Origin: an uncultured Candidatus Saccharibacteria bacterium
Lineage (GTDB): Bacteria; Patescibacteriota; Minisyncoccia; Ryanbacterales; GWA2-47-10b
NCBI GenBank assembly: GCA_964653715.1
Contig: CAZZGX010000027.1
Span: 1,836 to 65,835 of the forward strand
Reading direction: 5' to 3'
DNA length: 64,000 nucleotides
Part shown: one piece after another, positions 3,883 to 63,173 of the stretch
How positions within the stretch are numbered: position 1 is the first letter of the stretch
How the letters are laid out: each line of letters begins with the position of its first letter
The notes under the pieces: model-generated
Seen by the model: only the letters and a program-made list of their open reading frames with translations
The model's database searches: none
What the model was told of the DNA's origin: nothing
Position numbers and translations under genes: made by a program

Positions 3883-5472
3883 ATGGCTTCGATTTCATAT
3901 CTTATAAAAGGGGGAACACTGATCGATGGATCTGGGTTTCCGATGACCCAGGATAATGTTGCTATTTCTGGAGAGACGATCAAAACCGTTGGTGCGGGAA
4001 GTGCTTCTGGCGCTACGCGCGTGATCGATGCTACTGGGAAATACGTAATTCCTGGTATTATTGATATTACGAATCACTCTGACACGCATTGGTCATTGTT
4101 TCTCTCTCCTTCGCAAGAAAGCCTTTTGCGTCAGGGGATAACTACTATTGTGGGTGGAGTATGTGGCTCCTCTCTTGCTCCTCTTGCTGATGCCCAAGCA
4201 ATACGCGCTATCCAAAAATGGACGGATCTTTCTAAAGTAAACATCAACTGGCAAACCCAGGAAGAATTTTTTATGGAGATTGAACGACATGCCCTCGGCG
4301 TTAATTTTGGGACACTCGTGGGGCATGGAACACTGCGCCGCGGAATCGCAAATGATAGAATTGATCAACTTACACCCAGCGAGCTTGAATCCATGAAACT
4401 ATTGCTTCGCAGGTCGCTTGATGAGGGCGCGTTAGGACTCTCGATCGGGCTTACCACAAGCCATGGATCGGTAGCGTCACAAGAAGAAATAATCGGGCTC
4501 GCAAAGGTTGTAACGGAGGCGAGAAAATTTGTCAGTATTCACCTTCGAAATGAGGGGCGTCGCATCCTTTCTTCAGTTGTGGAGGCAGTCAATATTGCGC
4601 GACAGAGCGGCTCACCCGTTCACATAGTGCATTTGAAAGGTATTGGCCGAAAAGCATGGAATGATTTTCGGAAAGCACTCGCGATTATTCGTAAAGCAAC
4701 AAAAGACGAACATCTCCCGATCACGGTTGATTTTTTCCCGTACTTACGAACGGGTTCGCTACTCTACACACTTCTTCCCGAATGGATGCGCGAAGGTGGT
4801 AAAGAAAAAATCTTAAAAGTCTTAGCAAATAAGGAACGACATCCCGAGGTTATCGAGAGTATCCAATCTCTCACGTTACATTATGAAAACATTATCGTTT
4901 CCGAGGCGCATAAAGACAAGCATGCGATAGGAAAATCAATAGCTCGCATTGCCTCTGAATCAGGCCTCACGCCCGAAGAGACGCTTGCGCAACTTCTGAT
5001 TGTGAATGAACTCGGAGTGAGTATTTTTGGGCGGACGTTGCGCGGGAAAAACATTGTTTCGCTCGCAAAGGAATCGTACAGCATGTTCGGCTCGGACGGC
5101 GTTGGCGAAAGCGATTTTGATACAAAAAAGAAAGGCAATCTTACGCATCCCCGTTCATACGGGGCGGCTCCGCGGTTTTTAAATCGTCTTGTGAAACGAG
5201 GCAAGGTTCTCAGCTGGGAAGAAGCGGTACGAAAGATGACTTCCATGCCCGCCGAGCTCCTTGGGCTTAAAGAATCCCACGGGCTCATTAAAAAAGGATA
5301 TGCTGCGGATCTTGTCATTTTTGATCCTGAAGAGCTCACCGATACTGCCACGTATCGTGATCCGTTTCAATATCCGAAAGGCATCGACTATGTTTTTATC
5401 AATGGACGCCTTGCACTTGAAAAAGGAGTTTTTACAGGAGCGCTTGCGGGAAAGATTCTCCGTCAAAGCTAG
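3883..5472 (+). CDS. Amidohydrolase family protein (N-acyl-D-amino-acid deacylase-like, Amidohydro_3)
   Basis: N-terminus GGTLIDGSG...IPGIIDITNHSD and length around 530 aa match D-aminoacylase-like amidohydrolases. The canonical HxH metal motif is degenerate (NHS). Confidence 0.6.
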   Translation: MASISYLIKGGTLIDGSGFPMTQDNVAISGETIKTVGAGSASGATRVIDATGKYVIPGIIDITNHSDTHWSLFLSPSQESLLRQGITTIVGGVCGSSLAPLADAQAIRAIQKWTDLSKVNINWQTQEEFFMEIERHALGVNFGTLVGHGTLRRGIANDRIDQLTPSELESMKLLLRRSLDEGALGLSIGLTTSHGSVASQEEIIGLAKVVTEARKFVSIHLRNEGRRILSSVVEAVNIARQSGSPVHIVHLKGIGRKAWNDFRKALAIIRKATKDEHLPITVDFFPYLRTGSLLYTLLPEWMREGGKEKILKVLANKERHPEVIESIQSLTLHYENIIVSEAHKDKHAIGKSIARIASESGLTPEETLAQLLIVNELGVSIFGRTLRGKNIVSLAKESYSMFGSDGVGESDFDTKKKGNLTHPRSYGAAPRFLNRLVKRGKVLSWEEAVRKMTSMPAELLGLKESHGLIKKGYAADLVIFDPEELTDTATYRDPFQYPKGIDYVFINGRLALEKGVFTGALAGKILRQS

Positions 5473-6745
5473 AAGCCCCGTTCTTATCCTCGGGTTGGGT
5501 CTTCATGGCGGCGGAGTCGGAGCGGCGAGTTTTTTTGCGCGTCTTGGATACTCGGTAACCGTTACGGATCTTAAAGCAAAAAAGGAGCTCTTGATATCGT
5601 TAAAAAAATTGCGCGGTTTACCAATCAAATACATTCTCGGCAAACACCGGATGGAAGATATTAAACGAAGCAAACTTATCGTTAAAAATCCGGGTATCCC
5701 AGCGAGTTCCCCGTATGTAATAGCCGCTCAAAAATATCATATTCCTGTGACAAATGACGGAGAGCTTTTTATGGAACTCGCCCCTCGCAAAAAAGTAATA
5801 GGGATCACCGGTACAAAAGGCAAAACAACCACTGCGATGCTCGTAGGCCGTCTTCTCGGAAAAGAAGCGTTTGTCGTCGGAGTTCCGGGTGTTTCGTTTT
5901 TTGATTACTTTGACCGCGTACGCGAACCGAAATGGATTGTTGCTGAATTCTCAAGTTTTGATCTCGAATTTGTTAAAAAAAGTCCCCACATAGCCGTCTT
6001 CACGTCACTTTTCCCAGATCATCTTGACCGTTACCCCACCTTTAAAAAATACGCTTCTGCAAAAATGAACATCGTCCGCCATCAAACGAGCGGGGATGTA
6101 GCGATTTTTGCTTCATCTCCCAACACGCGTTCTCAAAGAGTAGAGTCTAAAAGTAAAGTAATTTGGGTAGACCTCGGGTCAAAAAAATACCGAGCTCCGT
6201 GGCCGACATCACACAATTCCGTGGCGCTTGCCGCCCGAGTAGGAGAAATATTAGGCTTTACTCAAAAAACAATCCAAGGGCGGTTTCATTCTTTCCGCCC
6301 GCCAAAAGGTAGGCTCGAAATAATATATCGCACAAAAAATCAGATATATATAAATGATACAACCTCTACGAATCCGGGGGCCGCGATGCATTCAATAAAA
6401 CTCATCGAGGAGCGTTTTGGCAAACAAAAACCTATTATTGTGATCACGGGAGGGGAGGATAAATCATTCCCAGCCGAAGAATTGAAAACATACGCGGAGT
6501 TTCTTCAAAATCATGCTATACGTGCTGTTTTTCTTAAAGGCTCAATGACTGAAAAATTGAAAAAGTACCTGCCCCATTTCGAGAAAACCTATACCTCCAT
6601 GCAAAATGCGGTCCGCGCGGCTCAATCATTCGAAGGAATTATCGTACTCCTTCCGGCAGCTGCTAGTTTTAATATGTTTCGCGACGAGTTTGATCGTGGA
6701 GAAAAATTTCTACGAGCTATACATCACAATGCGCGTGCAAAATAA
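5402..6745 (+). CDS. murD: UDP-N-acetylmuramoylalanine--D-glutamate ligase
   Basis: Rossmann start VLILGLGLHGGG, Mur ligase P-loop GITGTKGKTTT, and position between mraY and ftsW. Start is uncertain: ATG 5390 or 5402, or TTG 5444. All overlap the amidohydrolase 3' end. Confidence 0.8.
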   Translation: MDALHLKKEFLQERLRERFSVKARSPVLILGLGLHGGGVGAASFFARLGYSVTVTDLKAKKELLISLKKLRGLPIKYILGKHRMEDIKRSKLIVKNPGIPASSPYVIAAQKYHIPVTNDGELFMELAPRKKVIGITGTKGKTTTAMLVGRLLGKEAFVVGVPGVSFFDYFDRVREPKWIVAEFSSFDLEFVKKSPHIAVFTSLFPDHLDRYPTFKKYASAKMNIVRHQTSGDVAIFASSPNTRSQRVESKSKVIWVDLGSKKYRAPWPTSHNSVALAARVGEILGFTQKTIQGRFHSFRPPKGRLEIIYRTKNQIYINDTTSTNPGAAMHSIKLIEERFGKQKPIIVITGGEDKSFPAEELKTYAEFLQNHAIRAVFLKGSMTEKLKKYLPHFEKTYTSMQNAVRAAQSFEGIIVLLPAAASFNMFRDEFDRGEKFLRAIHHNARAK

Positions 6746-8956: not shown

Positions 8957-10337
8957 TATCCGCGTCCGCATCGCGCCTTCGCCTACCGGCAATTTGCATC
9001 TAGGTACCGCCCGTACGGCGCTTTTTAATTGGCTCTGGGCGAAAAAAACGGGCGGAGTCTTTATAGTTCGCATTGAGGATACGGACCGTGAGCGCTCAAG
9101 ACCGGAGTTTGAAAAAAATATTCTTGATGGACTTCATTGGCTCAAACTCGAATATGACGAATTTTACCACCAAAGCGAACGACTTGATCTCTATGAAACA
9201 TATTTAAAAAAACTACTCTATGGAGGAAATGCTTTTTTTTGTACACACTCCACCGAAGAGCTAGGAACAGAAGCAAAAACCCAGCGTGACTTAAAAGAAA
9301 CGCCACGGCACATCTGCAAACATCGCGAGAGCGGGCTCAAAGAGGGGATTATCCGTTTTAAAAACAATGCTCAAGGACCAATCCGTATCTTGGACATCGT
9401 TCGTGGTGAAATTTCATACGATGCCGGCATTTTCGGAGATTTTTCTCTTGCAAAAAATATGCGCGAGCCGCTCTACAATTTTGCAGCCGTTGTAGACGAC
9501 TATGAAATGAAAATATCCCATGTCATGCGCGGCGAGGATCATATTTCAAATACGCCAAAACAAATTTTACTTGAGCGGGCGCTCGAGATCCCGGAACCTA
9601 TCTGGGTACACCTGCCGCTGCTTCTTGGGCAAGATCGTTCAAAGCTTTCAAAGCGGCATGGGGCGCTTTCTCTAAACGAGTACCGTGAAATGGGATATCT
9701 CCCTGAAGCCATGACTAATTTTATGGCACTTTTGGGGTGGCATCCAAAAGATGAAGTGGGAGAGCTCCTTGATAGAGAAGCGCTTGTTCGTGAATTTTCT
9801 CTCGAAAAAATTCAAAAAGGCGGAGCCATTGTTTCGGGTGAAAAGCTTGACTGGTTTAACCGGATGTACATCAAAAAAAATATTCAATTGCTTGCGGATG
9901 CTATCAGTCAGGAGATAAAAAATGCTCTTGGCCAAAGCGCTACTAAAAAAGCACTTGAACTTGCCGCAGAACGGATTACTAAAACAACGGAACTGGAGCC
10001 GCTTCTCGAGGAAATTATTTCTCCGCCACCATATACACGCGATGTACTTCTTTGGAACGGGAAAAATGATCCACGGGAGACGGCAAGCATAATTGACGAA
10101 CTAATAGATTTATTGTCTGCACTAGATGCGCGGCAATTTAACTCGCATGACCTCGAGAAGGCACTTTTACCTTTAATTGAGAAAAATGGCAAAGGAAGGG
10201 TTTTATGGCCTTTTCGAGTGGCTTTATCGGGTAAGACTGCCTCGTTTGGGCCATATGACCTAGCAGAGATTCTCGGCAAAAATCGGACGCTGGAGCGCCT
10301 TGGAATTGCAGAGGAAATTCTTAAGGGAGCTTCGTAA
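8949..10337 (+). CDS. gltX: Glutamyl-tRNA synthetase
   Basis: Class I HIGH motif (PSPTGNLHLGTAR) and KMSKS motif (KLSKRHG) are present. Confidence 0.9.
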   Translation: MSSIRVRIAPSPTGNLHLGTARTALFNWLWAKKTGGVFIVRIEDTDRERSRPEFEKNILDGLHWLKLEYDEFYHQSERLDLYETYLKKLLYGGNAFFCTHSTEELGTEAKTQRDLKETPRHICKHRESGLKEGIIRFKNNAQGPIRILDIVRGEISYDAGIFGDFSLAKNMREPLYNFAAVVDDYEMKISHVMRGEDHISNTPKQILLERALEIPEPIWVHLPLLLGQDRSKLSKRHGALSLNEYREMGYLPEAMTNFMALLGWHPKDEVGELLDREALVREFSLEKIQKGGAIVSGEKLDWFNRMYIKKNIQLLADAISQEIKNALGQSATKKALELAAERITKTTELEPLLEEIISPPPYTRDVLLWNGKNDPRETASIIDELIDLLSALDARQFNSHDLEKALLPLIEKNGKGRVLWPFRVALSGKTASFGPYDLAEILGKNRTLERLGIAEEILKGAS

Positions 10338-10339
10338 AG

Positions 10340-11587
10340 ATGAAGAGAAAAATATTTTTTTGGCTTATATCTCTTCTGGTATTTGTACCAGTCTTTTTTA
10401 CAAAAGGAGCTCTTGTTGATGACCTCCAAAAAAAAATTCAGGACCGAGAGAGCGAGATCAAGACGCTTGAAGCCGAGATTGCCCAGTATCAAGGCGTGCT
10501 GGAGAAACAAACGGGAGTTTCAAAAACTCTCAAGGATGAGATCAGCCGGCTTGAAAATGAAATTAAAAAACTGAACGCGAATATTACGCTCACACAAAAC
10601 CGTATAGCAAAAACCGAGCTCACGATTCAAGAATTATCGCTCATGATCACAGACAAGGAAAAAAATATCGAGAGGGATACCGATTCGCTTCGCGAGCTCT
10701 TGCGTTCAATGAATGAGAGCGATGAACTATCAATTATCGAAGTTCTTCTTTCGCGCCCCGTTGTTTCAGATTTTTTGGGGGATATCCAGTCCTATGAAAC
10801 TATCAGCTCAAGCGTAGAAGACAAATTGGTCCTGTTACAAAATGAGAAAAAAGAGTTGCTCGCTGAGCGAAGTATAAAAGAAAACGAACAGACAAACCTT
10901 ACGGTATTAAAAGAAGACCTTTTGGGTCGCAAGACCGCGGAAGTCTCCTTGGGCGGAACGAAGAAAAAACTTTTGAAAGACAGTAAAAACCAAGAAACTG
11001 TATATTCAAAAATGCTTCGCGAGCGTGAAGCACGGCGGGCACTTGTACAGAAAGAAACGCAAGATATCGAAAGTCAGTTGAAGCTTCTGATTGATCCAAG
11101 TTCTTTGCCGCAAAAAAGGCCTGGAGTTCTTTCAGCTCCGGTTCTTGATCTCTTTATAACCCAACAGTTTGGCTTTACTGATTTTGCCTTAACGTATGGC
11201 TCCGACGTGTATCGCGGCAAGGGCCATAATGGAATTGATGTGCGGGCTCCAATTGGAACACGCGTACTTGCAGCCGCAGACGGAGTTGTCAAACATATCG
11301 GCAATACAGACGCTATTTGCCCGGGAGGATCCTATGGTAAATATATAGTTATTGAGCATCCAAACAATCTTTCAACGCTCTACGGACACCTTGCCTTAAT
11401 GAGCGTGACTCAAGGTCAAAAGATCACGCGTGGAGAGGGGATCGGGTATTCCGGAAATACCGGGTATTCAACGGGGCCGCATCTGCATTTTACGGTATAT
11501 GCCTCCAATACCTACCGGCTCGCGAAAACCGTTCATTGTGGGCTTATCCCTGCCGGTGGGTATCTTAATCCAACAGATTATTTATAA
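10340..11587 (+). CDS. M23 family metallopeptidase with N-terminal coiled coil (EnvC-like murein hydrolase activator/peptidase)
   Basis: Signal/TM, a long coiled coil, then an M23 domain carrying HxxxD and HLHF motifs (GHNGIDV, PHLHFTVY). Confidence 0.8.
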   Translation: MKRKIFFWLISLLVFVPVFFTKGALVDDLQKKIQDRESEIKTLEAEIAQYQGVLEKQTGVSKTLKDEISRLENEIKKLNANITLTQNRIAKTELTIQELSLMITDKEKNIERDTDSLRELLRSMNESDELSIIEVLLSRPVVSDFLGDIQSYETISSSVEDKLVLLQNEKKELLAERSIKENEQTNLTVLKEDLLGRKTAEVSLGGTKKKLLKDSKNQETVYSKMLREREARRALVQKETQDIESQLKLLIDPSSLPQKRPGVLSAPVLDLFITQQFGFTDFALTYGSDVYRGKGHNGIDVRAPIGTRVLAAADGVVKHIGNTDAICPGGSYGKYIVIEHPNNLSTLYGHLALMSVTQGQKITRGEGIGYSGNTGYSTGPHLHFTVYASNTYRLAKTVHCGLIPAGGYLNPTDYL

Positions 11588-21994: not shown

Positions 21995-22270
21995 ATGACA
22001 AAGCTCGACATTACGTTGAGTGCAGACAAAGAACTCCAATCCATATGCTGTAAAAGACAAGTAGATCAAGTGAGTCGTACGATCCTTGATATCGCGAGTG
22101 ACCCATTTATGCGTGAGACACGGGATCTCGAAAATAATCCGGGAGTGCGGTATATCGCGGTTGAGAACTTTTATATATTATATTATGTAGCCGAATCTGC
22201 GGGAGAGGACAAGCCCCGCCTAGTCAGTATTATGGGAGTTCTCAACGGCCCCTATCATCCACTTCACTAA
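21995..22270 (+). CDS. RelE/ParE-family toxin-like protein (orphan, no cognate antitoxin ORF adjacent)
   Basis: A 91-aa protein with the ParE/RelE pattern ...NNPGVRYIAVENFYILYYVAE...RLVSIMGV. It has its own SD and promoter. Start corrected from 21983 to ATG 21995, because MEGG is the SD. Confidence 0.55.
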   Translation: MTKLDITLSADKELQSICCKRQVDQVSRTILDIASDPFMRETRDLENNPGVRYIAVENFYILYYVAESAGEDKPRLVSIMGVLNGPYHPLH

Positions 22271-23892: not shown

Positions 23893-23972
23893 ATCCCCCT
23901 CCTCCCAATGACGATGAACTTTCGAAAATACATTACCATAGGTATGTGAAGTTTGTCGAATTCCATCCCAAC

Positions 23973-53661: not shown

Positions 53662-54141
53662 CTATTGAATTTGAACAACCCCAAGAACGTTGACGCTGAC
53701 GGCAAGCGTGCCCCCCGTAGAATGCGCGAGTGTCACAAGACCTGCCGCCTGCGGCACGCCGAGACCCTTTGAAAAATAAACATCGCCCAGAGAAAAATTT
53801 GAACTTTGGGTTAGGGCCGAAGGCAAAACGGTTATCTGATCAATACTTGGGTCACGATTGGCAAAAGCAGGACTCGCGCTTGGCGATCCCCACAACGTAA
53901 AACGATTTGTATCAAAATGGACGCCGTATGTCATTCCTCCCGCGCGCGCGGCCGAACGCTCGCGCGCCTGTCTAAGAGTTGCCGCCAACTGATCGGCATA
54001 TTCGTCGAGTTGGGCGCCCCGATAAACATTGCTATAAAGTGGGGTCGCTAAAACCGCGAGTAAAAGGGTGATCGCGAGAACAATAACAAACTCAAAAGCG
54101 GTAAACCCTTTTTTAGCGCTGGATATTGCCCGTAAGCTCAT
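53662..54141 (-). CDS. Prepilin-type pseudopilin (minor pilin)
   Basis: MSLRAISSAKKGFTAFEFVIVLAITLLLA from ATG 54141, overlapping the pilC 3' end by 29 nt. Confidence 0.7.
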   Translation of the reverse strand: MSLRAISSAKKGFTAFEFVIVLAITLLLAVLATPLYSNVYRGAQLDEYADQLAATLRQARERSAARAGGMTYGVHFDTNRFTLWGSPSASPAFANRDPSIDQITVLPSALTQSSNFSLGDVYFSKGLGVPQAAGLVTLAHSTGGTLAVSVNVLGVVQIQ

Positions 54142-55198
54142 AGATGGGCGTAATGATGGCGAGCGCGAATATGACAACTATAATACCTATAATAAGCAAA
54201 AGCATGGGTTCTATAATAGTAGAAAGTGATTTTGCGGTCGTATCGACTCCTTCCTCATAAAAATTAGCAAGATATAAAAGTGTCTCCTCAAAGCGCCCGG
54301 ACTCTTCCCCAACCTGCACCATGCGCGTAACTATTTTAGGAAAAAGTTTTTTGTGCGACTCGAGACTTTCGGCAAGTTTTCCTCCTTTACTGATGTGTAC
54401 CGACACGTCTTCAAGGGCGCGGCGATAATAAAAATTGCCGGTGCTTGAAGCGGTAATATCGAGCGCCTCATCGATATTGATTCCACTTTTAAGCAGCGTC
54501 CCCAGTGTTCTTGAAAAACGCGCGAGATTCGCGCCCATCACAAGGCGCTTGATAAGAGGCGTGTGCAAAAAAATCCAATGGGTCACGGGCTTTATAAAAT
54601 TTTGACGGATAAGCCATACAAAGAAAAAAATAAAAAATACGAGACCAAGAAGCAGCCAAACGCCATCATTTTGAATAAGGTGCGCGAACCAAATAAGAGC
54701 GCGCGTGCTCATTGGTAAGTCTATCTTAAGTCCCTCAAAAAGAGGTATGATCTTTGGAAGCACAACAAAGGACATAAAAATACCGAGGATAAATGTGGCA
54801 ACAAGAATGAACCCGGGATACACCAAGGCGCCTGTCACTTTTGCCGTAAGCTCTTTTTCCTTTTCAAGCTCTTGGGCAACGCTCTCAAGATTTTCGGCGA
54901 GCTGCCCCGAGGCCTCCCCTGCACGCACCGATTCCGTAAAAAGGCCCGAAAATACTCGAGGATAATCTGAAAATGACGAGGAAAGGGAACGCCCCGTCTC
55001 AACCGCTTTGAGGACTCCTCCGAGCGTCGGCTTCAGTCTGCCTTCAGCCGCGTCTGCCGCGATTGAAAGCGCCTCAATGATTGTAAGACCAGACCGCAAC
55101 ATCACTGCCAAGTGCTTGGCAAGCAATGCTCGTTGGGTAAGGCTTACCCCACCAAAAGAAATAGAACGATTTAATTTTTTTACGCTACTTGTTTTCAT
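54113..55198 (-). CDS. pilC: Type IV pilus platform protein PilC (GspF family)
   Basis: Two T2SSF repeats and three TM helices. 361 aa. Confidence 0.85.
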   Translation of the reverse strand: MKTSSVKKLNRSISFGGVSLTQRALLAKHLAVMLRSGLTIIEALSIAADAAEGRLKPTLGGVLKAVETGRSLSSSFSDYPRVFSGLFTESVRAGEASGQLAENLESVAQELEKEKELTAKVTGALVYPGFILVATFILGIFMSFVVLPKIIPLFEGLKIDLPMSTRALIWFAHLIQNDGVWLLLGLVFFIFFFVWLIRQNFIKPVTHWIFLHTPLIKRLVMGANLARFSRTLGTLLKSGINIDEALDITASSTGNFYYRRALEDVSVHISKGGKLAESLESHKKLFPKIVTRMVQVGEESGRFEETLLYLANFYEEGVDTTAKSLSTIIEPMLLLIIGIIVVIFALAIITPIYELTGNIQR

Positions 55199-56306: not shown

Positions 56307-58094
56307 TTATTCTTTAGTGGCGCGGATAACTTCTTCAAGCGTGGTAATGCCTACAATAACTTTCTGAATCCCGTCCTCGAGCATCGTGGTCATGCCGCTA
56401 CTCTCTGCCACTTTCATAATTTCGATAGAGGCCGCCCGTTTGGTAATTAAATCTTTAATTTCATCGTTCATCAAAAGCACTTCAAAAATTCCAACCCGCC
56501 CGAGGTATCCCGTGCTAGAGCAAACAGGACATCCCCCGCCCTTGTAAAAACGAATTTTCGCAAACGACGATTTATTCTTTATCTTTAAAAGCTTTTTTAA
56601 GTGCGGGTCCTCTTCGATCATTGCCTTTTCCTCCGGAAGAAGTTTATACGAGACGCGGCACTTCTCACAAATGCGGCGCACGAGTCGCTGGGCGATGATA
56701 CAATTGACGGTTGAGGCCACAAGAAATGGCTCGACCTTCATATCCAAAAGGCGCGGCAGAGTGGTCGCCGCGTCATTTGCGTGGAGCGTTGAGAGGACGA
56801 GGTGGCCGGTCATGGCTGAGTTTACGGCGATATCAGCGGTTTCCTCATCGCGGATCTCGCCGACCATAATCATGTCCGGGTCCTGCCGGACGATCGCGCG
56901 AAGTCCTTTTGCGAACGTCAGATTGGTTCTTGAGTTTACCTGAATTTGGCTGACTCCTTCAATTTCATATTCAACAGGATCCTCAATGGTTGAGATATGA
57001 ACGTCGCGGGTGTTTAAAATTTTGAGCATGCCGTAGACCGTCGTCGTCTTCCCGGATCCCGTAGGGCCTGTTACAAGAATCATCCCGTGCGGATTGTCGA
57101 TCGAGCGGCGGACTTTTTTAAAATCAGCCTCACCCAACCCCAAATCCGTAAGGCCAAATTGCCGGCTCCGAGCCGAGAGGATACGCATGACGACATTTTC
57201 GCCTTCGGTCACCGGCACAATGGAAATACGAACGTCCACTTTTTCATCATCGGCCTCAAAAGCAAGCTTACCATCCTGTGCCGCGCGGTGCTCGTCAGTA
57301 CGCATTTTCGATAATATTTTTATGCGCGTCAAAATCAAATCCATGAGCGCTTTGGGCACGTCAAGAACATCGTGCATAACGCCGTCAACTCGAAAGCGAA
57401 CCATTACCTTGCCGGGGTGCGGCTCCACATGAATATCGGATGCCTTTGAATCATATCCGTAGTGGAGCAGCATATCGACAACCTCAACGATAGTCTCGTC
57501 GCGCTCCTCTTTTGAAAGAAGAGTGTCGTTGAGCTTGCCAAGAATTTTTTTAAATTCATCGTGAATATTGGCTTTGTAGCGCGCGAGTACATCATCAAAA
57601 CTCCGGCGTGTCATGTAAAACGGCATGACTTTAGCGCCGAGCCGTTTTTCAAGAAGATGCGTTGCCTCAAAATCATCGGGATCGCGCATGCCTACCTTGA
57701 CGCCCGCACCCCTGCGCGAGAAGGCAACCACACCGCGCGCGCGCGCAACTGCTTCGGGAATTTCGTGAAGTAGCGCCTCATCAATTTTTTCTTCCTTAAG
57801 ATCGACGAAGGAAACTCCCAGCTCCTCTGCTATGATCTTACCTAGCTGGTCGTCATTGATAAGGTCCTTATCAATCAAAAGCTCGTCGAGTGCTTTCCCC
57901 TGCTCACCTGCTTCTTTTTTGGCAAGCTCAAAATCCGCCTCCGAGACAAGACCGGGCTTTACCAGCAACTCCTTTATTTTTTCATCGGTAAGGTCCACAG
58001 CTAAATTTAATTGTATTATAACTGAAAGCGGTAGATGGAGACAGTGCTTTGTTTTAAAGTATATATTGGTGGTCTTTGGAGGGATCAATGACAA
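56307..58094 (-). CDS. pilB: Type IV pilus assembly ATPase PilB (GspE family)
   Basis: N-terminal GSPII_E_N domain, Walker A GPTGSGKTTT, and a tetra-Cys motif (CEKC...CPVC). 595 aa. The N-terminus overlaps the divergent XRE gene; the true start may be the downstream GTG at 57998. Confidence 0.9.
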   Translation of the reverse strand: MSLIPPKTTNIYFKTKHCLHLPLSVIIQLNLAVDLTDEKIKELLVKPGLVSEADFELAKKEAGEQGKALDELLIDKDLINDDQLGKIIAEELGVSFVDLKEEKIDEALLHEIPEAVARARGVVAFSRRGAGVKVGMRDPDDFEATHLLEKRLGAKVMPFYMTRRSFDDVLARYKANIHDEFKKILGKLNDTLLSKEERDETIVEVVDMLLHYGYDSKASDIHVEPHPGKVMVRFRVDGVMHDVLDVPKALMDLILTRIKILSKMRTDEHRAAQDGKLAFEADDEKVDVRISIVPVTEGENVVMRILSARSRQFGLTDLGLGEADFKKVRRSIDNPHGMILVTGPTGSGKTTTVYGMLKILNTRDVHISTIEDPVEYEIEGVSQIQVNSRTNLTFAKGLRAIVRQDPDMIMVGEIRDEETADIAVNSAMTGHLVLSTLHANDAATTLPRLLDMKVEPFLVASTVNCIIAQRLVRRICEKCRVSYKLLPEEKAMIEEDPHLKKLLKIKNKSSFAKIRFYKGGGCPVCSSTGYLGRVGIFEVLLMNDEIKDLITKRAASIEIMKVAESSGMTTMLEDGIQKVIVGITTLEEVIRATKE

Positions 58095-58342
58095 AGGACG
58101 GTATTAATCAGAAGTTCGTGGCACGACGGATTCGAGAAGCGATAGATATGCATGCCGAAGGCGATATCCAGCTATTTGCGCATTACGTCGGGCTCTCTGC
58201 TTCAGCAATGTACAACTATATCCATACCGAAAGAACCCCTTCAACCAGAGCGCTTTGGAAAATATCTAGATTCACGAACTTGCCAATGGAATGGTTTCTC
58301 ACAGAACCCAAACGGCAAATCACGAACCTTTCAGACAATTAA
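58076..58342 (+). CDS. XRE-family helix-turn-helix transcriptional regulator
   Basis: Cro/C1-type HTH (FAHYVGLSASAMYNYIHTERTPSTRALWKISRFTNLPMEWF). 88 aa. Confidence 0.65.
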   Translation: MEGSMTKDGINQKFVARRIREAIDMHAEGDIQLFAHYVGLSASAMYNYIHTERTPSTRALWKISRFTNLPMEWFLTEPKRQITNLSDN

Positions 58343-58346
58343 AAAA

Positions 58347-58371
58347 ACCGCCCACGGGCGGTCTTTTTTTT
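58347..58371 (+). terminator. Intrinsic terminator (A7-ACCGCCC-ACG-GGCGGT-T9)
   Basis: GC hairpin plus U-run 5 nt after the XRE stop. Confidence 0.8.
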
Positions 58372-58387
58372 ATTAAACACGTCTGCA

Positions 58388-58417
58388 TTGACAAAAGAAC
58401 AGTTTTAGTGTAAGAAT
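58388..58417 (+). promoter_or_regulatory. Consensus-like sigma70 promoter TTGACA-17 nt-TAAGAAT
   Basis: Perfect -35 hexamer, 17-nt spacer and a good -10. About 20 nt downstream lie AAGGAGG and an ATG at 58448. Confidence 0.6.
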
Positions 58418-58447
58418 AAGTTAGACAAATTTGCCAAGGAGGTTTCA

Positions 58448-58909
58448 ATGCGGCGAATCAGGCGATTCTTTCAAAAAATAACTCTCATCGAACTCATCGC
58501 GATTTGTGCAGTGGGAGGTATTACAGGCAAAATGTACCTTCTCGTGCGAGAGCGACAAGATCTGCGAATGCAGATCGGTGTCGTACTGCTCGAGCATAAG
58601 CTCGTGTATCGTTACGAAGAGCGCGGGTTTGGCACTCTTGCGCGTCTTTGCAAAAGTACACCGCGCAAATGGCGCGAGTTTTACTTTACCTGCAAAGCAA
58701 CGAAAAGACCAAGTGCGCCAGCCTCGCTTGTAACCACGATATACCGCAATCGATTCGCGGCCAATCATAAATACGCCGCTTTCAAGCGGCGCTGGCAATC
58801 ATCTGAATGGATCCCCATTCGGCGCTCACCCGGACTTGTCTCGCGACAAGTCCGTTTTTTTATTTATCCGGAAATTCTTTTTAAAATTGTTCTTTCAATA
58901 AAAAAATGA
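58448..58909 (+). CDS. Hypothetical highly basic small protein, OR an untranslated about 440-nt RNA (ORF runs through its own terminator)
   Basis: The best promoter and SD in the window sit upstream. The 153-aa ORF (MRRIRRFFQKITLIELIAICAVGG...) continues about 50 nt past an intrinsic terminator at 58831-58862. Confidence 0.3.
   Translation: MRRIRRFFQKITLIELIAICAVGGITGKMYLLVRERQDLRMQIGVVLLEHKLVYRYEERGFGTLARLCKSTPRKWREFYFTCKATKRPSAPASLVTTIYRNRFAANHKYAAFKRRWQSSEWIPIRRSPGLVSRQVRFFIYPEILFKIVLSIKK
58831..58862 (+). terminator. Intrinsic terminator (CGGACTTGTC-TCGC-GACAAGTCCG + T8)
   Basis: Perfect 10-bp stem plus U-run. It lies inside the 58448 ORF. Confidence 0.75.
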
Positions 58910-58938
58910 GGGTGTCCGGCACCTAGCAGGACACCCTC
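58901..58938 (-). terminator. Intrinsic terminator for minus-strand gene 58978..59580 (GAGGGTGTCC-N11-GGACACCCTC, T7 on minus)
   Basis: 10-bp stem preceded by A7 on plus. Convergent with the plus-strand terminator 40 nt away. Confidence 0.7.
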
Positions 58939-58977
58939 TTAGTCGCAGACACCTGATCAACTTGCTTTAGCCATCGC

Positions 58978-59580
58978 TTACTCGTAAACCACGAGCTTGT
59001 TGTCTCGGTGGTCAAGCGCGATTCGCGGTGGAAGACTCCACTCCTCTGCAAGTTTCTCGACCAGCTGGTCTGACGGCTTGGCAAGTTTGCAACTTTCGTC
59101 GCTAAGCTGGACCCAATTGCCGAACTTGCGCGCGTAGTAGCCATCATCACGCTTTTCTACACGGAACGCGTAGAAACTCGCTTGGTCCTTCGCCTGTGCC
59201 TTATACGCGCCTTTCTGTCCATGCTTGTCTGCGGCGCGTTCGCGGCAAACCGGGCAAGCGCGGTGAAGCTTCAAGAAATCAGAGAAACTGTAATAGGCAT
59301 TCCCGTAGCCGTGGGAATACTCCTCCCTCCCTTCGACGAGCAGGAGTTCTGCTCTACCCGTGGGAACAATTTCGGAGCAATAGGTGCACCAAGTCATTCC
59401 GCGAGCATGGAGTTCCTGCTGGAGAAGCTCGACGCGTTTCGCGCCGTATTCGCTAACTACCTGCCGGAGTGTCTGTTGCTTGGCGGAAAGTTTGAGTGAA
59501 ATCTGGTCGATGTTCTGTGCTGTACGCTCGGCCCGCTTACGCATGGCCAAAAGCTCTGTCGCCATCGCTTCTTGTGCCAT
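58978..59580 (-). CDS. Hypothetical coiled-coil protein with CxxC...CxxC zinc ribbon
   Basis: 200 aa. N-terminal heptad region, then CTYCSE-x27-CPVCRE. SD AAAGGAGAG 7 nt upstream. Local GC is above the window background. Confidence 0.55.
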   Translation of the reverse strand: MAQEAMATELLAMRKRAERTAQNIDQISLKLSAKQQTLRQVVSEYGAKRVELLQQELHARGMTWCTYCSEIVPTGRAELLLVEGREEYSHGYGNAYYSFSDFLKLHRACPVCRERAADKHGQKGAYKAQAKDQASFYAFRVEKRDDGYYARKFGNWVQLSDESCKLAKPSDQLVEKLAEEWSLPPRIALDHRDNKLVVYE

Positions 59581-59654
59581 AAAAAGCTCTCCTTTTTATG
59601 TTTGATTGTTGGAGTTCCATAAACAAGCTACCAAAAACAGCAATAAAAATCAAA

Positions 59655-59688
59655 CGAAAACAGAAACCATTTCAAATTTCTGTTTTCG
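59655..59688 (-). terminator. Terminator hairpin (CGAAAACAGAAA-N10-TTTCTGTTTTCG), T-rich on minus side
   Basis: Perfect 12-bp stem 30 nt downstream of the 59717 stop. Confidence 0.55.
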
Positions 59689-59716
59689 AAAAATCTTTAT
59701 GAAAAAAATTCTTTTG

Positions 59717-60001
59717 CTATTTGATTTTCCTCTCAAGACGAGCAACGCGGGTTTCGAGAAATTTAAACTCATCACGAGTTATTTGATTGTGGCGGATAAG
59801 CGCAAGTTCCGATTTCATAATATCAATATCGCCTTCGACTTTCATGAGCTTCTCGTCAATTTTATCTAATCTTCTCGTATGTTGTTTTGTCTCATCGCGG
59901 ACAAAATCCAAACTTTCTCCAAATACTCTAAAATCAGAGTGGATATTCTCTAAAACAATAGTATAAGCGTCTTTTTCTCTTATCTGCTTTCTCTTGGCCA
60001 T
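59717..60001 (-). CDS. Hypothetical coiled-coil protein (94 aa)
   Basis: Heptad-rich (…LDKIDEKLMKVEGDIDIMKSELALIRHNQITRDEFKFLETRVARLERKIK), AT-rich, with its own terminator. Confidence 0.45.
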   Translation of the reverse strand: MAKRKQIREKDAYTIVLENIHSDFRVFGESLDFVRDETKQHTRRLDKIDEKLMKVEGDIDIMKSELALIRHNQITRDEFKFLETRVARLERKIK

Positions 60002-60063: not shown

Positions 60064-60150
60064 GCGGAGAGGGTGAGATTCGAACTCACGAGAGGATTGC
60101 TCCTCTGGCGGTTTTCAAGACCGCTGCCTTCAACCACTCAGCCACCTCTC
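60064..60150 (-). tRNA. tRNA-Ser (anticodon UGA), class II with long variable arm, CCA not encoded
   Basis: Hand fold: GGAGAGG-TG-GCT-GAGTGGTTGAA-GGC-A-GCGGT-CTTGAAA-ACCGC-CAGAGGAGCAATCCTCTC-GTGAG-TTCGAAT-CTCAC-CCTCTCC-G. Confidence 0.85.
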
Positions 60151-60195
60151 CGCTCTACTACGGAATCATTTCAAATTTTTAAGACCGCCGCCTTG

Positions 60196-60405
60196 TCGCG
60201 CTTATCACGCGGTTAAACATGACACGAGTCATGTTTAACGGGCTTCCCGCCTCGCCTCGATGGTGAGTCGAGGCGGGCGCCCGTCAAAAGCAACCCCATT
60301 GCTTTTGACCCACCCAGCCACCCCACCAGTGCAAATAGAATATCAAAATTGGGGCGAATTTCAACTTGAAAATAAATTCGGGGACGTTCCTTTTGGAACG
60401 TCCCC
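60196..60405. repeat. Cluster of four unrelated perfect/near-perfect GC-rich palindromes (stems 11-12 bp) plus minor AT palindromes
   Basis: 60212-60239 GTTAAACATGAC/GTCATGTTTAAC. About 60249-60279 CGCCTCGA/TCGAGGCG. 60283-60309 GTCAAAAGCAA/TTGCTTTTGAC. 60378-60405 CGGGGACGTTCC/GGAACGTCCCCG; the last also acts as terminator for the 60427 gene. Confidence 0.8.
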
Positions 60406-60426
60406 GACTCTTTGTTCGGCCAGCAA

Positions 60427-60735
60427 CTAGACCGGACGGATCTCGTGCACTTTGCGCTGCAACACGACGACCTTGCCATTGAGCGGCGTGGCCACCTGGA
60501 TGCGTTTGCCCACACGGCGGCGCACTTTGCCTGTGAACTCTCGCCTCCCATGCGTAAGCCTTACCTGGTCGCCCGGCGTAATCTTCACAGTGACGCCTTC
60601 GACGATGGTCCCATCTGGAAGGATCAGATCCCGTGGCTCCAGATGCTCGAGGCTCACCGGGGGTACAAACTCTTTGACCCCAGGCCGCAGGTATAGTAGA
60701 GCAGCAACTCCGATGAAAATCAGCAAAATGCTCAT
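60427..60735 (-). CDS. Hypothetical small membrane-anchored protein encoded in a 60+% GC segment
   Basis: 102 aa. SD GGAAGGAGG 6 nt upstream. N-terminal TM (MSILLIFIGVAALLYL) then a beta-rich domain (ILPDGTIVEGVTVKITPGDQVRL...). Hand-counted GC about 63% over 120 nt versus about 33-45% elsewhere. Confidence 0.55.
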   Translation of the reverse strand: MSILLIFIGVAALLYLRPGVKEFVPPVSLEHLEPRDLILPDGTIVEGVTVKITPGDQVRLTHGRREFTGKVRRRVGKRIQVATPLNGKVVVLQRKVHEIRPV

Positions 60736-60874
60736 TTCTGCCTCCTTCCTTCATTGTAAAACAGTTTCATGAACCCAAAAACATTATATCATAATTATAT
60801 TGATTGTCAATATTCGTATAAATCTATTGTTATGCGCGATACTTCGTGCTAGGGATAAGCAGTAATTTATACCA

Positions 60875-62092
60875 ATGAATACCACCAAGGTAGTACAAGA
60901 ACTTGCCCAAGGACCAACACTTTCCATTATCGCGCTTATTGACGCCCTCATAGAAGAAGCGCACGGCCTCCGCGCATCGGACATTCATATTGACCCCAAT
61001 GAAAAAGAAGTTAAAGTGCGCGTGCGCATCGACGGTGTACTGCAAGACACCTATTCCATTCCTAAAGAAATCCAATCTGAAGTTATAACGAGAATTAAAG
61101 TCCTCTCTGGACTCCGCACGGACGAGCACCAAGCGCCGCAGGACGGGCGTTTTAGAATCGTACTTGCAGAGCAAAGTCCAATTGATATTCGCGTATCCAT
61201 CGCGCCTTCTTATTACGGAGAAAATGCGGTTTTGCGTCTTCTTTCCGAACGATCAGAAAAATTCGCGCTTGAGATGCTTGGCTTCAGCGAAGAAAACCAA
61301 GAAAAAATCGCGCGCGCCATCAGAAACCCATATGGAATGATACTGGCAACGGGACCAACGGGATCAGGCAAAACCACGACGCTCTACACCATTTTAAAAC
61401 AGCTCAATACAAAAGAGGTTTCCATTATAACGATCGAAGATCCGATAGAATACGCGCTCGACGGAATCAACCAGATGCAGGTCAACGCGCGGAGCGGTCT
61501 CACGTTTGCAAACGGCCTTCGCTCTATTTTGCGTCAAGACCCTGACATCATCATGGTTGGCGAAATCCGCGATTCCGAAACCGCCGGGCTTGCGGTAAAC
61601 ACGGCGCTCACCGGTCACCTCGTTCTATCCACACTTCACACAAACGACGCGGCAACCACACTCCCCCGCATGCTTGATCTGGGTCTCGAGCCGTATCTCA
61701 TCACTGCCACGGTAAATCTAGTTATTGGCCAGCGACTTGTCAGAAAAATATGTAGAGAGTGCAAAAAAGAGCACGAACTTACGCCTGCGGAACAAAAAAG
61801 TCTCGCAACAACAAAAAATATCCCGGCCTCGTTTAGTCAAATGCGCTCGGTGTGGCGAGGAGCTGGCTGTGAAGCATGCAACGGCAGTGGCTATAGAGGA
61901 CGCCTCGGCATTTATGAGATCATCGAGGTCAACGACGAGCTCAGAAACGCCATGCTCGAGCGATGCTCGTCTGAAAATATAAAAAAAGTTGCGATCCAAC
62001 ATGGCATGAGAAGCATGGTCGAGGACGGTTTTAAAAAAGTATTCAGAGGTCTCACCACCTTCGAAGAAGTTCTCCGCGTCATCCATGAATAA
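60875..62092 (+). CDS. GspE/PilB-family secretion ATPase, short form (second copy)
   Basis: Walker A GPTGSGKTTT, Asp/His boxes, and a tetra-Cys motif (CRECKKEH...CEACNGSG) that marks GspE/PilB rather than PilT. 405 aa. Confidence 0.85.
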   Translation: MNTTKVVQELAQGPTLSIIALIDALIEEAHGLRASDIHIDPNEKEVKVRVRIDGVLQDTYSIPKEIQSEVITRIKVLSGLRTDEHQAPQDGRFRIVLAEQSPIDIRVSIAPSYYGENAVLRLLSERSEKFALEMLGFSEENQEKIARAIRNPYGMILATGPTGSGKTTTLYTILKQLNTKEVSIITIEDPIEYALDGINQMQVNARSGLTFANGLRSILRQDPDIIMVGEIRDSETAGLAVNTALTGHLVLSTLHTNDAATTLPRMLDLGLEPYLITATVNLVIGQRLVRKICRECKKEHELTPAEQKSLATTKNIPASFSQMRSVWRGAGCEACNGSGYRGRLGIYEIIEVNDELRNAMLERCSSENIKKVAIQHGMRSMVEDGFKKVFRGLTTFEEVLRVIHE

Positions 62093-63173
62093 GCCAAAAC
62101 TCTCCGCAATGTCTCTTTCTCTCTTCCGCACCCGTCTGTCGCTTCGGGATCAGGCGCTTTTTGCCAAACGCCTTTCGCTCCTCTCACGTGCAGGCGTAAC
62201 GCTGCTTGAATCGATCAACATCATGAACCGCCAGAGTAAGGGCGCTAGAAAAAAAATGTATGAGGAGATTGAGAATGATTTAGCAAACGGACAATATTTA
62301 TCAAAAAGTCTCGCGCGACACCACCATAGCTTTGGCAACTTTGCCATAAATATTATTCGAGTCGGCGAGACAACTGGCACGCTTTCAGATAATTTGCTCT
62401 ACCTCTCGGAAGAAATCGACAAAAAAAGAGAATTGCGAGGAAAAGTCATCGGCGCCCTTATCTACCCGATCATTATCATGGTATCAGCGCTCGCAATTGC
62501 CGGATTTTTAACGATTTACCTTTTTCCAAAACTTATGCCGGTGTTTCAAAGCTTAAACGTAAAGTTACCAATAACGACGCGAGCGCTCATCTGGATAAGC
62601 ACATTTCTCATCGCCTACGGGCCTTGGATAATCGCCGGCCTCGTGGTGGGATTGATCGCGCTTTTCATTGCGTTGCGGGATGAACGTGTTCGGTTCATTT
62701 TTGATCATTTTCTTTTAAAAATTCCTGTCATGGGCGATGTACTTCAGCACTATCATATCAGCAACACCTGCCGCACCATGGGGCTCCTATTAAAAAGCAA
62801 CGTGCGCGTCTTGGAATCTGTTACGGTGGCAGCAGAAACTTCAAGCAATTTGCCCTATAGATACGCGCTCGCGCACCTTAAGACCGCAATCACCAAAGGG
62901 TCAAATATCGCGAAACAACTCGAGAAAAAACCGGGTCTTTTCCCCATCATGCTCACCGAGATGATCGCAATCGGAGAGAAAACCGGTAATCTGTCCGAGA
63001 CGTTTCTCTATTTATCTGGAATCTACGAACAGGAACTTGATGAAAAAACTAAACGACTTTCCTCAACTATTGAACCCGCCATGATGCTGGGAATGGGACT
63101 GCTTGTCGGCTTTATCGCAGTCTCCATCATCACGCCTATTTATGAGGTTACGCAACACTTGCAACCAAGGTAG
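62085..63173 (+). CDS. GspF/PilC-family platform protein (second copy)
   Basis: Two T2SSF repeats and three TMs, translationally coupled to the upstream ATPase (8-nt overlap). Confidence 0.85.
   Translation: MNKPKLSAMSLSLFRTRLSLRDQALFAKRLSLLSRAGVTLLESINIMNRQSKGARKKMYEEIENDLANGQYLSKSLARHHHSFGNFAINIIRVGETTGTLSDNLLYLSEEIDKKRELRGKVIGALIYPIIIMVSALAIAGFLTIYLFPKLMPVFQSLNVKLPITTRALIWISTFLIAYGPWIIAGLVVGLIALFIALRDERVRFIFDHFLLKIPVMGDVLQHYHISNTCRTMGLLLKSNVRVLESVTVAAETSSNLPYRYALAHLKTAITKGSNIAKQLEKKPGLFPIMLTEMIAIGEKTGNLSETFLYLSGIYEQELDEKTKRLSSTIEPAMMLGMGLLVGFIAVSIITPIYEVTQHLQPR

Follow-up and report, generated by a model that had tools for sequence, protein, structure and literature searches.

A probable orphan gene of atypical composition, with a predicted promoter and terminator of its own, in a tRNA-Ser-containing spacer between two pilus-type operons of a Parcubacteria genome

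A stretch of 64,000 nucleotides of contig CAZZGX010000027.1 (assembly GCA_964653715.1), hereafter referred to as the window, belongs to a Parcubacteria genome (candidate phyla radiation, CPR, or Patescibacteria) and carries on its minus strand, at positions 60427-60735, an open reading frame (ORF) that begins with ATG, comprises 102 codons and ends with TAG. The analysis reported here indicates that this ORF is probably a genuine, independently transcribed protein-coding gene without detectable relatives, located in a variable, tRNA-Ser-containing spacer between two divergent pilus-type operons. A foreign derivation of the gene is favoured on balance, while a recent date for its transfer is unproven.

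As read from the DNA, a full expression cassette brackets the ORF, consisting of an extended -10 promoter, a leader with a Shine-Dalgarno (SD) sequence, the 102 codons and an intrinsic terminator. The elements of the cassette and of the predicted product are the following.

60783..60810, minus strand: predicted promoter, with TTGACA at 60810-60805, a 16-nt spacer ending in TGA and TATAAT at 60788-60783
60736..60776, minus strand: 5' leader of an inferred length of about 41 nt, carrying the SD sequence AAGGAAGGAGG
60427..60735, minus strand: coding sequence, 102 codons and the stop codon TAG, with the product MSILLIFIGVAALLYLRPGVKEFVPPVSLEHLEPRDLILPDGTIVEGVTVKITPGDQVRLTHGRREFTGKVRRRVGKRIQVATPLNGKVVVLQRKVHEIRPV; the peptides EFVPPVSLEHLEPR and DLILPDGTIVEGVTVK belong to this frame and lie within the 102-aa product
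60688..60732, minus strand: hydrophobic segment, codons 2-16 (SILLIFIGVAALLYL), read as an N-terminal membrane anchor
60430..60606, minus strand: basic, predicted all-beta domain, codons 44-102, with a GD-x-V...G-x-V motif
60368..60407, minus strand: predicted intrinsic terminator, TCGGGGACGTTCC-AAAA-GGAACGTCCCCGA followed by the tail ATTTATTTTC

The predicted promoter scores 12/12 against the sigma-70 consensus, with a TGn extension, and no second perfect sigma-70 match occurs in the 64 kb, whichever strand is read. It lies within an AT-rich intergenic stretch (60736-60874, GC content 0.317) shared divergently with a pilus ATPase gene, and the transcription start was placed from its -10 box. 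The GGAGG motif at 60745-60741 is separated from the ATG by a 5-nt spacer, in agreement with the initial annotation of this DNA, which had considered the distance between the SD sequence and the start codon to be ideal. The terminator hairpin (60407-60378) begins 19 nt past the stop codon and has 13 pairs, nine of them G-C, a loop of four nucleotides and a T-rich tail. The promoter and the terminator add to what that annotation had described.

Six-frame codon models trained in two ways, on 217 long genes from the fetched loci (54-63% GC) and on the window's own genes, were used to assess the reading frame. The frame of the 102-codon ORF is the sole coding-like frame of the six, with +16.0 nats under the 58% GC-gene model and +12.1 nats under the window-gene model. 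Each of the remaining five frames fits better as an off-frame of it, which upholds the earlier view that the overlapping antisense ORFs are artefacts. With a half-trained model, the ORF scored 15.4, a value at the 56th percentile among 806 real fragments kept out of the training. Its coding score was not reached by any of 4000 random sequences of matched composition, even when the best of six frames was taken. The coding signal in sliding windows is non-negative only within 60735-60436. The amino-acid make-up of the product is normal, with Cys, Trp and His together amounting to 3% as against 7-14% in the alternative frames. A structured non-coding RNA was considered in place of a protein-coding frame and was ruled out, as folding over 60427-60735 revealed no excess structure (z = 0.09 for the minus and 0.00 for the plus strand) and the comparison with Rfam returned nothing above noise.

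The public gene caller picked a different ORF on the same strand, of 156 aa (60284-60754, product P0080, recorded from the 65,947-nt source contig), and the 102-aa product is missing from the protein collection owing to this call, which is an off-frame artefact. The 156-aa frame scores -50.7 and -24.7 nats in the two models and is negative in every sliding window; its GC content by codon position runs GC2 > GC1 > GC3 (0.61/0.59/0.43), the ORF would run through the terminator hairpin, and its product is rich in Arg, Trp, Cys and His and finds only itself in the protein search. It is most improbable that either this ORF or a 94-aa ORF on the plus strand (60412-60696) is the true gene, although the former was selected by the gene caller of the source contig and, with initiation mostly SD-free in this genome, a start at the leader's first AUG (60754) is conceivable for it, and although the latter lies in the antisense register, where the GC1/GC3 pattern is mirrored. 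The plus-strand ORF scores -16.0 and -12.1 nats, and its TTG start lies 5 nt after the terminator hairpin and has no SD sequence.

The GC content of the 102-codon ORF is 0.583 as compared with 0.462 for the window, and its values at the three codon positions (GC1/2/3) are 0.68/0.38/0.69. Relative to 1244 fragments of the same length drawn from 44 window genes, which have a GC3 of 0.46±0.06, the GC3 of 0.69 corresponds to z = +3.8 and is reached by none of the fragments; the total GC (z = +3.1), the Karlin codon bias (z = +3.2) and the codon adaptation index (CAI, z = -3.8) depart likewise. With the window's S9, L13, RpoA, S4 and S11 genes as the CAI reference, the ORF has a value of 0.548 against 0.699±0.035 (z = -4.3), lower than all of 1180 fragments. 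The initial annotation had placed the base composition far from the host background, with the proviso that codon usage and GC3 might prove indistinguishable from those of core genes after a proper calculation; the comparison with the ribosomal-protein genes, carried out here, sets the ORF apart in CAI and places its GC3 outside their range. These highly expressed reference genes have a GC3 of only 0.40-0.45, and therefore expression-linked codon bias was ruled out as the source of the GC-rich third positions.

The initiation signals of the ORF are also atypical. Few of the 44 reference genes have an SD-like motif and one has GGAGG, and the SD-led start of the ORF was therefore counted in favour of foreign origin. 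Most housekeeping genes in the window lack an SD sequence, and about 20 of 43 genes carry a -10-like TAnnnT hexamer 3-9 nt before the ATG, a position that suggests leaderless mRNAs. GGAGG-led starts belong mostly to small accessory genes, namely those with ATGs at 21995, 22359, 29739, 58088 and 58448 and, on the minus strand, the 102-codon ORF (ATG at 60735) and an ORF with GGAGG at 23902. The anti-SD motif is absent in about half of the Parcubacteria (PMC9297842). An SD-led cassette amid housekeeping genes that mostly lack an SD sequence and appear leaderless thus offers a convenient natural test of SD-led initiation in such Parcubacteria.

Searches for relatives bear out the orphan status given to the gene by the initial annotation. 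No relative of the 102-aa protein was found by a word-indexed search of 5.8 billion clustered proteins, by pattern-plus-tblastn searches of 185,579 species genomes, 241 million metagenome records and 2.9 million viral contigs, or by tblastn against phage and plasmid records, and a full HMMER search of 1.84 billion representatives yielded no credible one. Pfam, NCBIfam, PHROGs, PADLOC and the PDB sequences gave no significant match; none of the PADLOC anti-phage defence profiles was matched, and the best PHROG match (E = 0.072) is of unknown function. The single HMMER match, P0001 (E = 1.6e-45), was rejected as an artefact, being a 2820-aa protein of 23 identical repeats that contribute about 7 bits each; one such repeat gives 32.7 BLASTP bits over 40 residues with the 102-aa protein, which is insignificant at database scale. 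Multi-stretch matches to perfectly repetitive proteins of this kind are best judged per repeat. Wrong-frame calls like that at the present locus could hide distant homologues in the protein databases, a caveat which applies to claims of orphan genes in CPR genomes generally; close homologues are excluded, since neither the DNA-level pattern scans nor a search with the 156-aa frame found any. CPR genomes are rich in small hypothetical membrane proteins, among which one singleton without a functional lead is unsurprising.

The product is predicted to be a small bitopic membrane protein, in which an anchor of 15-16 residues carries a short acidic linker and, after it, a strongly basic all-beta domain some 55 residues long. 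Residues 2-16 have a mean Kyte-Doolittle hydropathy of 2.71 over 15 residues (2.02 over 19), and AlphaFold places a helix at residues 4-14. The N-terminus (MSILLIFIGVAALLYL) was scanned for a basic n-region, an AXA signal-peptidase site, a lipobox and a prepilin motif and has none of these, and the hydrophobic segment is read as a probable signal anchor. The linker (residues 17-46) has a net charge of -3 and residues 47-102 a net charge of +11. AlphaFold, run without an alignment, predicts five to six strands across residues 35-93, with a mean predicted local distance difference test score (pLDDT) of 52-55 and 65-72 in the core, and the period-2 hydrophobic moment modestly exceeds that of shuffled sequences (z = 1.6-1.75, p ~0.05). 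The hydropathy and the modelled strands are thus consistent with the layout proposed from the letters alone, with a hydrophobic stretch at the N-terminus and a beta-rich region after it. The beta domain is probably a small SH3/KOW-like barrel. It is somewhat more likely to lie on the cytoplasmic than on the outer face (N-out/C-in), because the N-terminus lacks positive charge and the domain carries +11.

The gene is flanked on both sides by divergent gene sets resembling those of type IV pili and type II secretion, between which lies a spacer of 2.8 kb. The principal features of the two sets and the tRNA gene of the spacer are listed below.

54113-55198, minus strand: T2SSF gene of the minus-strand set, which also includes a response regulator and a histidine kinase
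56307-58094, minus strand: gene with T2SSE and MshEN domains, minus-strand set
60064-60151, minus strand: tRNA-Ser(tga), within the spacer
60875-62092, plus strand: T2SSE gene (the pilus ATPase gene adjoining the cassette), ATG at 60875, plus-strand set
62085-63173, plus strand: T2SSF gene of the plus-strand set, followed by a pilin-like gene

Apart from the 102-codon ORF, which sits 5' of the tRNA-Ser gene, the spacer holds an XRE-type helix-turn-helix (HTH) gene, a pilin-like ORF, a conserved gene of 200 aa, a 94-aa coiled-coil orphan and the tRNA gene itself. The closest relative of the adjoining ATPase gene, in a groundwater-type metagenome-assembled genome (MAG), has 70% protein identity, and its homologues in a Yanofskybacteria MAG and a Jorgensenbacteria MAG are 64% and 59% identical, respectively. 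In none of the six closest loci does the DNA upstream of the ATPase homologue contain a counterpart of the 102-codon gene, and the content of the spacer differs in each relative examined.

The 200-aa gene (58978-59580, minus strand), 850 nt from the cassette, provides a useful comparison. Its family is widespread in the Parcubacteria (78 matches), has no Pfam domain and carries a conserved SD sequence, and the protein of the window has a Cys motif, CTYC...CPVC. In four other loci, in hosts of 46-53% GC, its GC3 is 0.69-0.71, and the third codon positions of the family are 49-69% identical. The gene is located downstream of a tRNA gene of the same orientation in every locus examined (L162, L163, L165 and L167), either adjacent to it or with one gene in between; many members lie on contigs of about 1 kb. 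The settings of the family vary and never include a relative of the 102-aa protein.

Several points weigh against the preferred reading of the 102-codon ORF. Its length alone is unremarkable, as 34% of composition-matched random copies of 60152-60740 hold such an ORF, and long ORFs run in four frames across the same stretch. In a gene without a homologue there is no conservation or support from the ratio of non-synonymous to synonymous substitutions (dN/dS) for the protein being maintained. The structure models are of low confidence and every fold search was insignificant; the hydrophobic segment is rather short to cross a membrane, and flanking charges of +2/-2 within 15 residues leave the topology unfixed. 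An open frame that arose by chance, either in a GC-rich spacer or within the decayed remnant of a mobile element beside the tRNA-Ser gene, would accommodate the common ORF length, the lack of a homologue, the low-confidence structure prediction and the unexplained hairpin-rich, GC-rich stretch that adjoins the ORF. Such a non-functional origin is nevertheless improbable, given that the codon-frame signal equals that of a median real gene and was attained by no random sequence, that this very frame lies between the one perfect promoter of the window, with a consensus SD sequence at ideal spacing, and a strong terminator, and that the amino-acid make-up is that of a normal protein. The sharp GC step across the region (0.32 to 0.60 to 0.51) and the break of an independent Logan assembly (run ERR3478687) near position 59707 might also be taken as signs of an assembly chimera, in which about 600 bp of a GC-richer organism was spliced into the contig. 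This can hardly be the case, since the GC-rich stretch lies within the contig, flanked on each side by DNA that resembles the host's, and begins at a start codon preceded by host-like AT-rich promoter DNA, whereas the break of the Logan assembly is 700 nt away and in AT-rich DNA; further, a fragment of a sampled organism would normally match the databases.

Granted a genuine gene, its origin must be weighed separately. The likely recent horizontal acquisition proposed by the initial annotation is retained here as to foreign derivation, the composition being outside the host range, but not as to recency, for which no donor, integrase or att repeat speaks. A number of observations count against foreign origin. 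No integrase or recombinase was found among the scanned neighbouring genes, no duplicated half of the tRNA-Ser gene (att repeat) in the window, only short direct repeats at chance level in the flanks, and no donor homologue in the searches. The gene is on the 5' side of the tRNA gene and not on the usual 3' integration side; the closest genome lacks the region but is a distant one, its ATPase protein being only 70% identical; GGAGG also precedes several other small window genes, so that the SD sequence is not uniquely foreign; and the 200-aa family retains a GC3 of 0.62-0.71 in every host examined. Because this family keeps a high GC3 across the Parcubacteria, atypical GC3 alone is no sign of recent transfer, and because it also keeps its SD sequence and other small genes use GGAGG, high GC3 and an SD sequence together do not date a transfer. 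These observations lend some substance to an unlikely alternative, a native, fast-evolving and lineage-specific gene whose high GC3 is gene-specific and persistent, as in the neighbouring 200-aa family. The latter occurs across the Brenner-, Sung-, Zambryski-, Falkow- and Spechtbacteria and keeps its high GC3 and a conserved SD sequence, the synonymous codons of the 102-codon ORF fit this family better than the host (+6.5 nats, against -26.8±9.8 for host fragments), and no signature of mobility lies beside the ORF. A native gene, whatever its age, should, on the other hand, show orthologues in some of the many sampled Parcubacteria, where none was found in either frame, and the relatives of the adjoining ATPase gene have nothing comparable upstream. 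A foreign-derived gene in a variable spacer is therefore preferred.

Among known proteins, the nearest in architecture is YajC (PF02699), a small accessory subunit of the Sec translocon of about 100 aa in which an N-terminal membrane helix followed by 'RP' precedes a small beta domain with GD-x-V...G-x-V, the soluble domain being cytoplasmic. The 102-aa product likewise has 'RP' after an N-terminal hydrophobic segment, and a beta domain that contains GD-x-V, a likeness judged by eye. Its length, the hydrophobic segment at residues 2-16 and the predicted strands are compatible with the YajC layout, an architecture which is not specific. The YajC profile was not matched in hmmscan searches of Pfam-A, which gave only Poly_export with the full protein (E up to 1) and with three constructs (E up to 10), HMMER filters dropping most matches above E ~0.1; no YajC gene was found in the fetched loci. 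In contrast to the short, basic and helical linker of YajC, that of the present product is acidic and about 38 residues long, and its domain has a charge of +11; the gene lies beside tRNA-Ser and T2SSE/T2SSF genes and not beside secDF/tgt, and its composition is foreign-like.

The only Pfam match, Poly_export (PF02563), aligns residues 49-100 with positions 6-56 of the 77-position model at 13.9-15.4 bits (E = 0.02-0.06), below the gathering threshold of 28 bits. The match invites comparison with Poly_export/SLBB-type domains, such as the Wza N-terminal domain, and with the membrane-anchored DNA receptors of ComEA type. ComEA-like proteins are N-terminally anchored and work with the type IV pilus or competence machinery, so that a type IV pilus setting is common to ComEA and the present gene; unlike ComEA, the 102-aa product has no helix-hairpin-helix in Pfam, and the sub-threshold score is accompanied by no PDB sequence match and no significant fold match. 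KOW/SH3-like barrels, as in ribosomal protein L24 and NusG/Spt5, offer another comparison. In GDQVRLTHGRREFTGKVRRRV the product has a motif similar to the KOW consensus G-D-x-V-x-V-x-x-G-x-x-x-G-x-x-G-x-V, its domain is basic, and weak Foldseek matches to the DSIF KOW6-7 domains and to eIF5A (E = 0.5-0.9) were obtained with the low-confidence model. Pfam gives no KOW match, and KOW proteins are soluble whereas the present product is predicted to be membrane-anchored. A pilin or pseudopilin was ruled out by the missing class III signal peptide (G|F/I-T-L-x-E): the product has no G-x-T-L-x-E motif and no N_methyl match in Pfam, whereas true pilin-like genes in other parts of the window do give such a match.

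In kind, the gene belongs with the known orphan accessory genes of atypical composition found in the variable regions that flank tRNA genes, with which it shares the lack of a homologue, outlier codons and a promoter and terminator of its own. It differs from that class in lying 5' of the tRNA gene and in having no integrase or att repeat. The Tip protein of Pseudomonas phage D3112 is reportedly a small prophage-encoded inhibitor of type IV pili that acts on the pilus ATPase; it may be cited as a possible functional analogue only, as there are no phage genes near the cassette, no viral relatives of the neighbouring genes were found, and the phage and viral collections hold nothing similar.

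A course of events may be proposed on this basis. The cassette would most likely have entered the lineage from an unsampled, GC-richer and SD-using gene pool, for example a mobile element. The gene would be strongly transcribed and, by SD-led translation, would give a single-pass membrane protein, whose basic small beta-barrel at the cytoplasmic face would bind an acidic partner or nucleic acid. The product would then probably be an accessory factor (exclusion, immunity or pilus modulation) and not a core part of the pilus, which is a guess. A more far-reaching proposal, and an improbable one when taken as a whole, is that the gene founds a new family of membrane-anchored, basic small beta-barrels that unsampled CPR mobile elements deliver with an SD-dependent cassette and that, from a place between the two pilus-motor operons, would modulate the type IV pilus or DNA uptake, as an exclusion factor or as a membrane-tethered binder of DNA or of the ATPase, in a mostly leaderless, SD-free host.

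Further observations concern the remaining contents of the spacer and the related loci. The region of about 95-110 nt upstream of the 200-aa gene (59581-59700) is 58-80% identical among family members, above the identity of their own third codon positions, and suggests a conserved regulatory leader. The candidate elements upstream of the 200-aa gene are a hairpin, a promoter-like TTGAT...TAGTTT element and the leader GGAACCCCAACAACCAAACACAGAAAGGAGAG. A Logan contig of run ERR3478687 (L161) corresponds to window positions of about 57629-59707 and has the same sequence in an independent assembly; it stops at about 59707, at an AT-rich junction ahead of the 94-aa coiled-coil ORF, and the 200-aa product is the only product of the region recorded from both assemblies. 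In the locus L165, a tRNA-Ser(tga) gene is followed by a truncated serine-recombinase N-terminus (MRYVIYTRKSSESEERQILSIEAQ…; 10093-10538), and in L162 a tRNA-Arg(tct) gene overlaps the end of a 493-aa large serine recombinase (4099-5640). The flanks of tRNA genes are thus zones of integration and plasticity in related Parcubacteria, which, like the variation of the spacer among relatives, was counted in favour of a foreign origin of the 102-codon gene.

Between the terminator of the cassette and the tRNA-Ser gene lies a hairpin array (60190-60310, within 60152-60345) of three to four consecutive near-perfect hairpins, with the following arms.

60212-60223/60228-60239: first pair of arms
60246-60258/60265-60277: second pair of arms
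~60283-60293/60299-60309: third pair of arms

The array folds far better than its shuffled versions on both strands (z = -6.0 and -5.5). It has no match in Rfam, and neither the rest of the window nor 160 loci contain a second copy. A weak promoter-like site lies upstream of it (60364-60337, minus strand), and the array could represent a small RNA, a long tRNA leader or protein-binding palindromes. Just 5' of it, a G-run tract, GGTGGGGTGGCTGGGTGGG (60309-60327, minus strand), might form a G-quadruplex.

The 94-aa coiled-coil ORF (59717-60001, minus strand), directly 3' of the tRNA-Ser gene, is a one-member cluster in the protein collection, with Pfam and PHROG coiled-coil matches at noise level. 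Its low GC content (0.37, with GC3 also 0.37) makes it the second compositional outlier of the spacer, in the direction opposite to that of the 102-codon ORF. The XRE-type HTH gene (58088-58342, plus strand) most likely starts at the ATG at 58088, with GGAGG 5 nt upstream, and matches phage repressor PHROGs and the N-terminus of the PADLOC protein RmrA. It is followed by an ORF of 153 aa (58448-58909, plus strand), also preceded by GGAGG, whose N-terminus (…FFQKITLIELIAICAVGGI…) resembles a degenerate prepilin signal.

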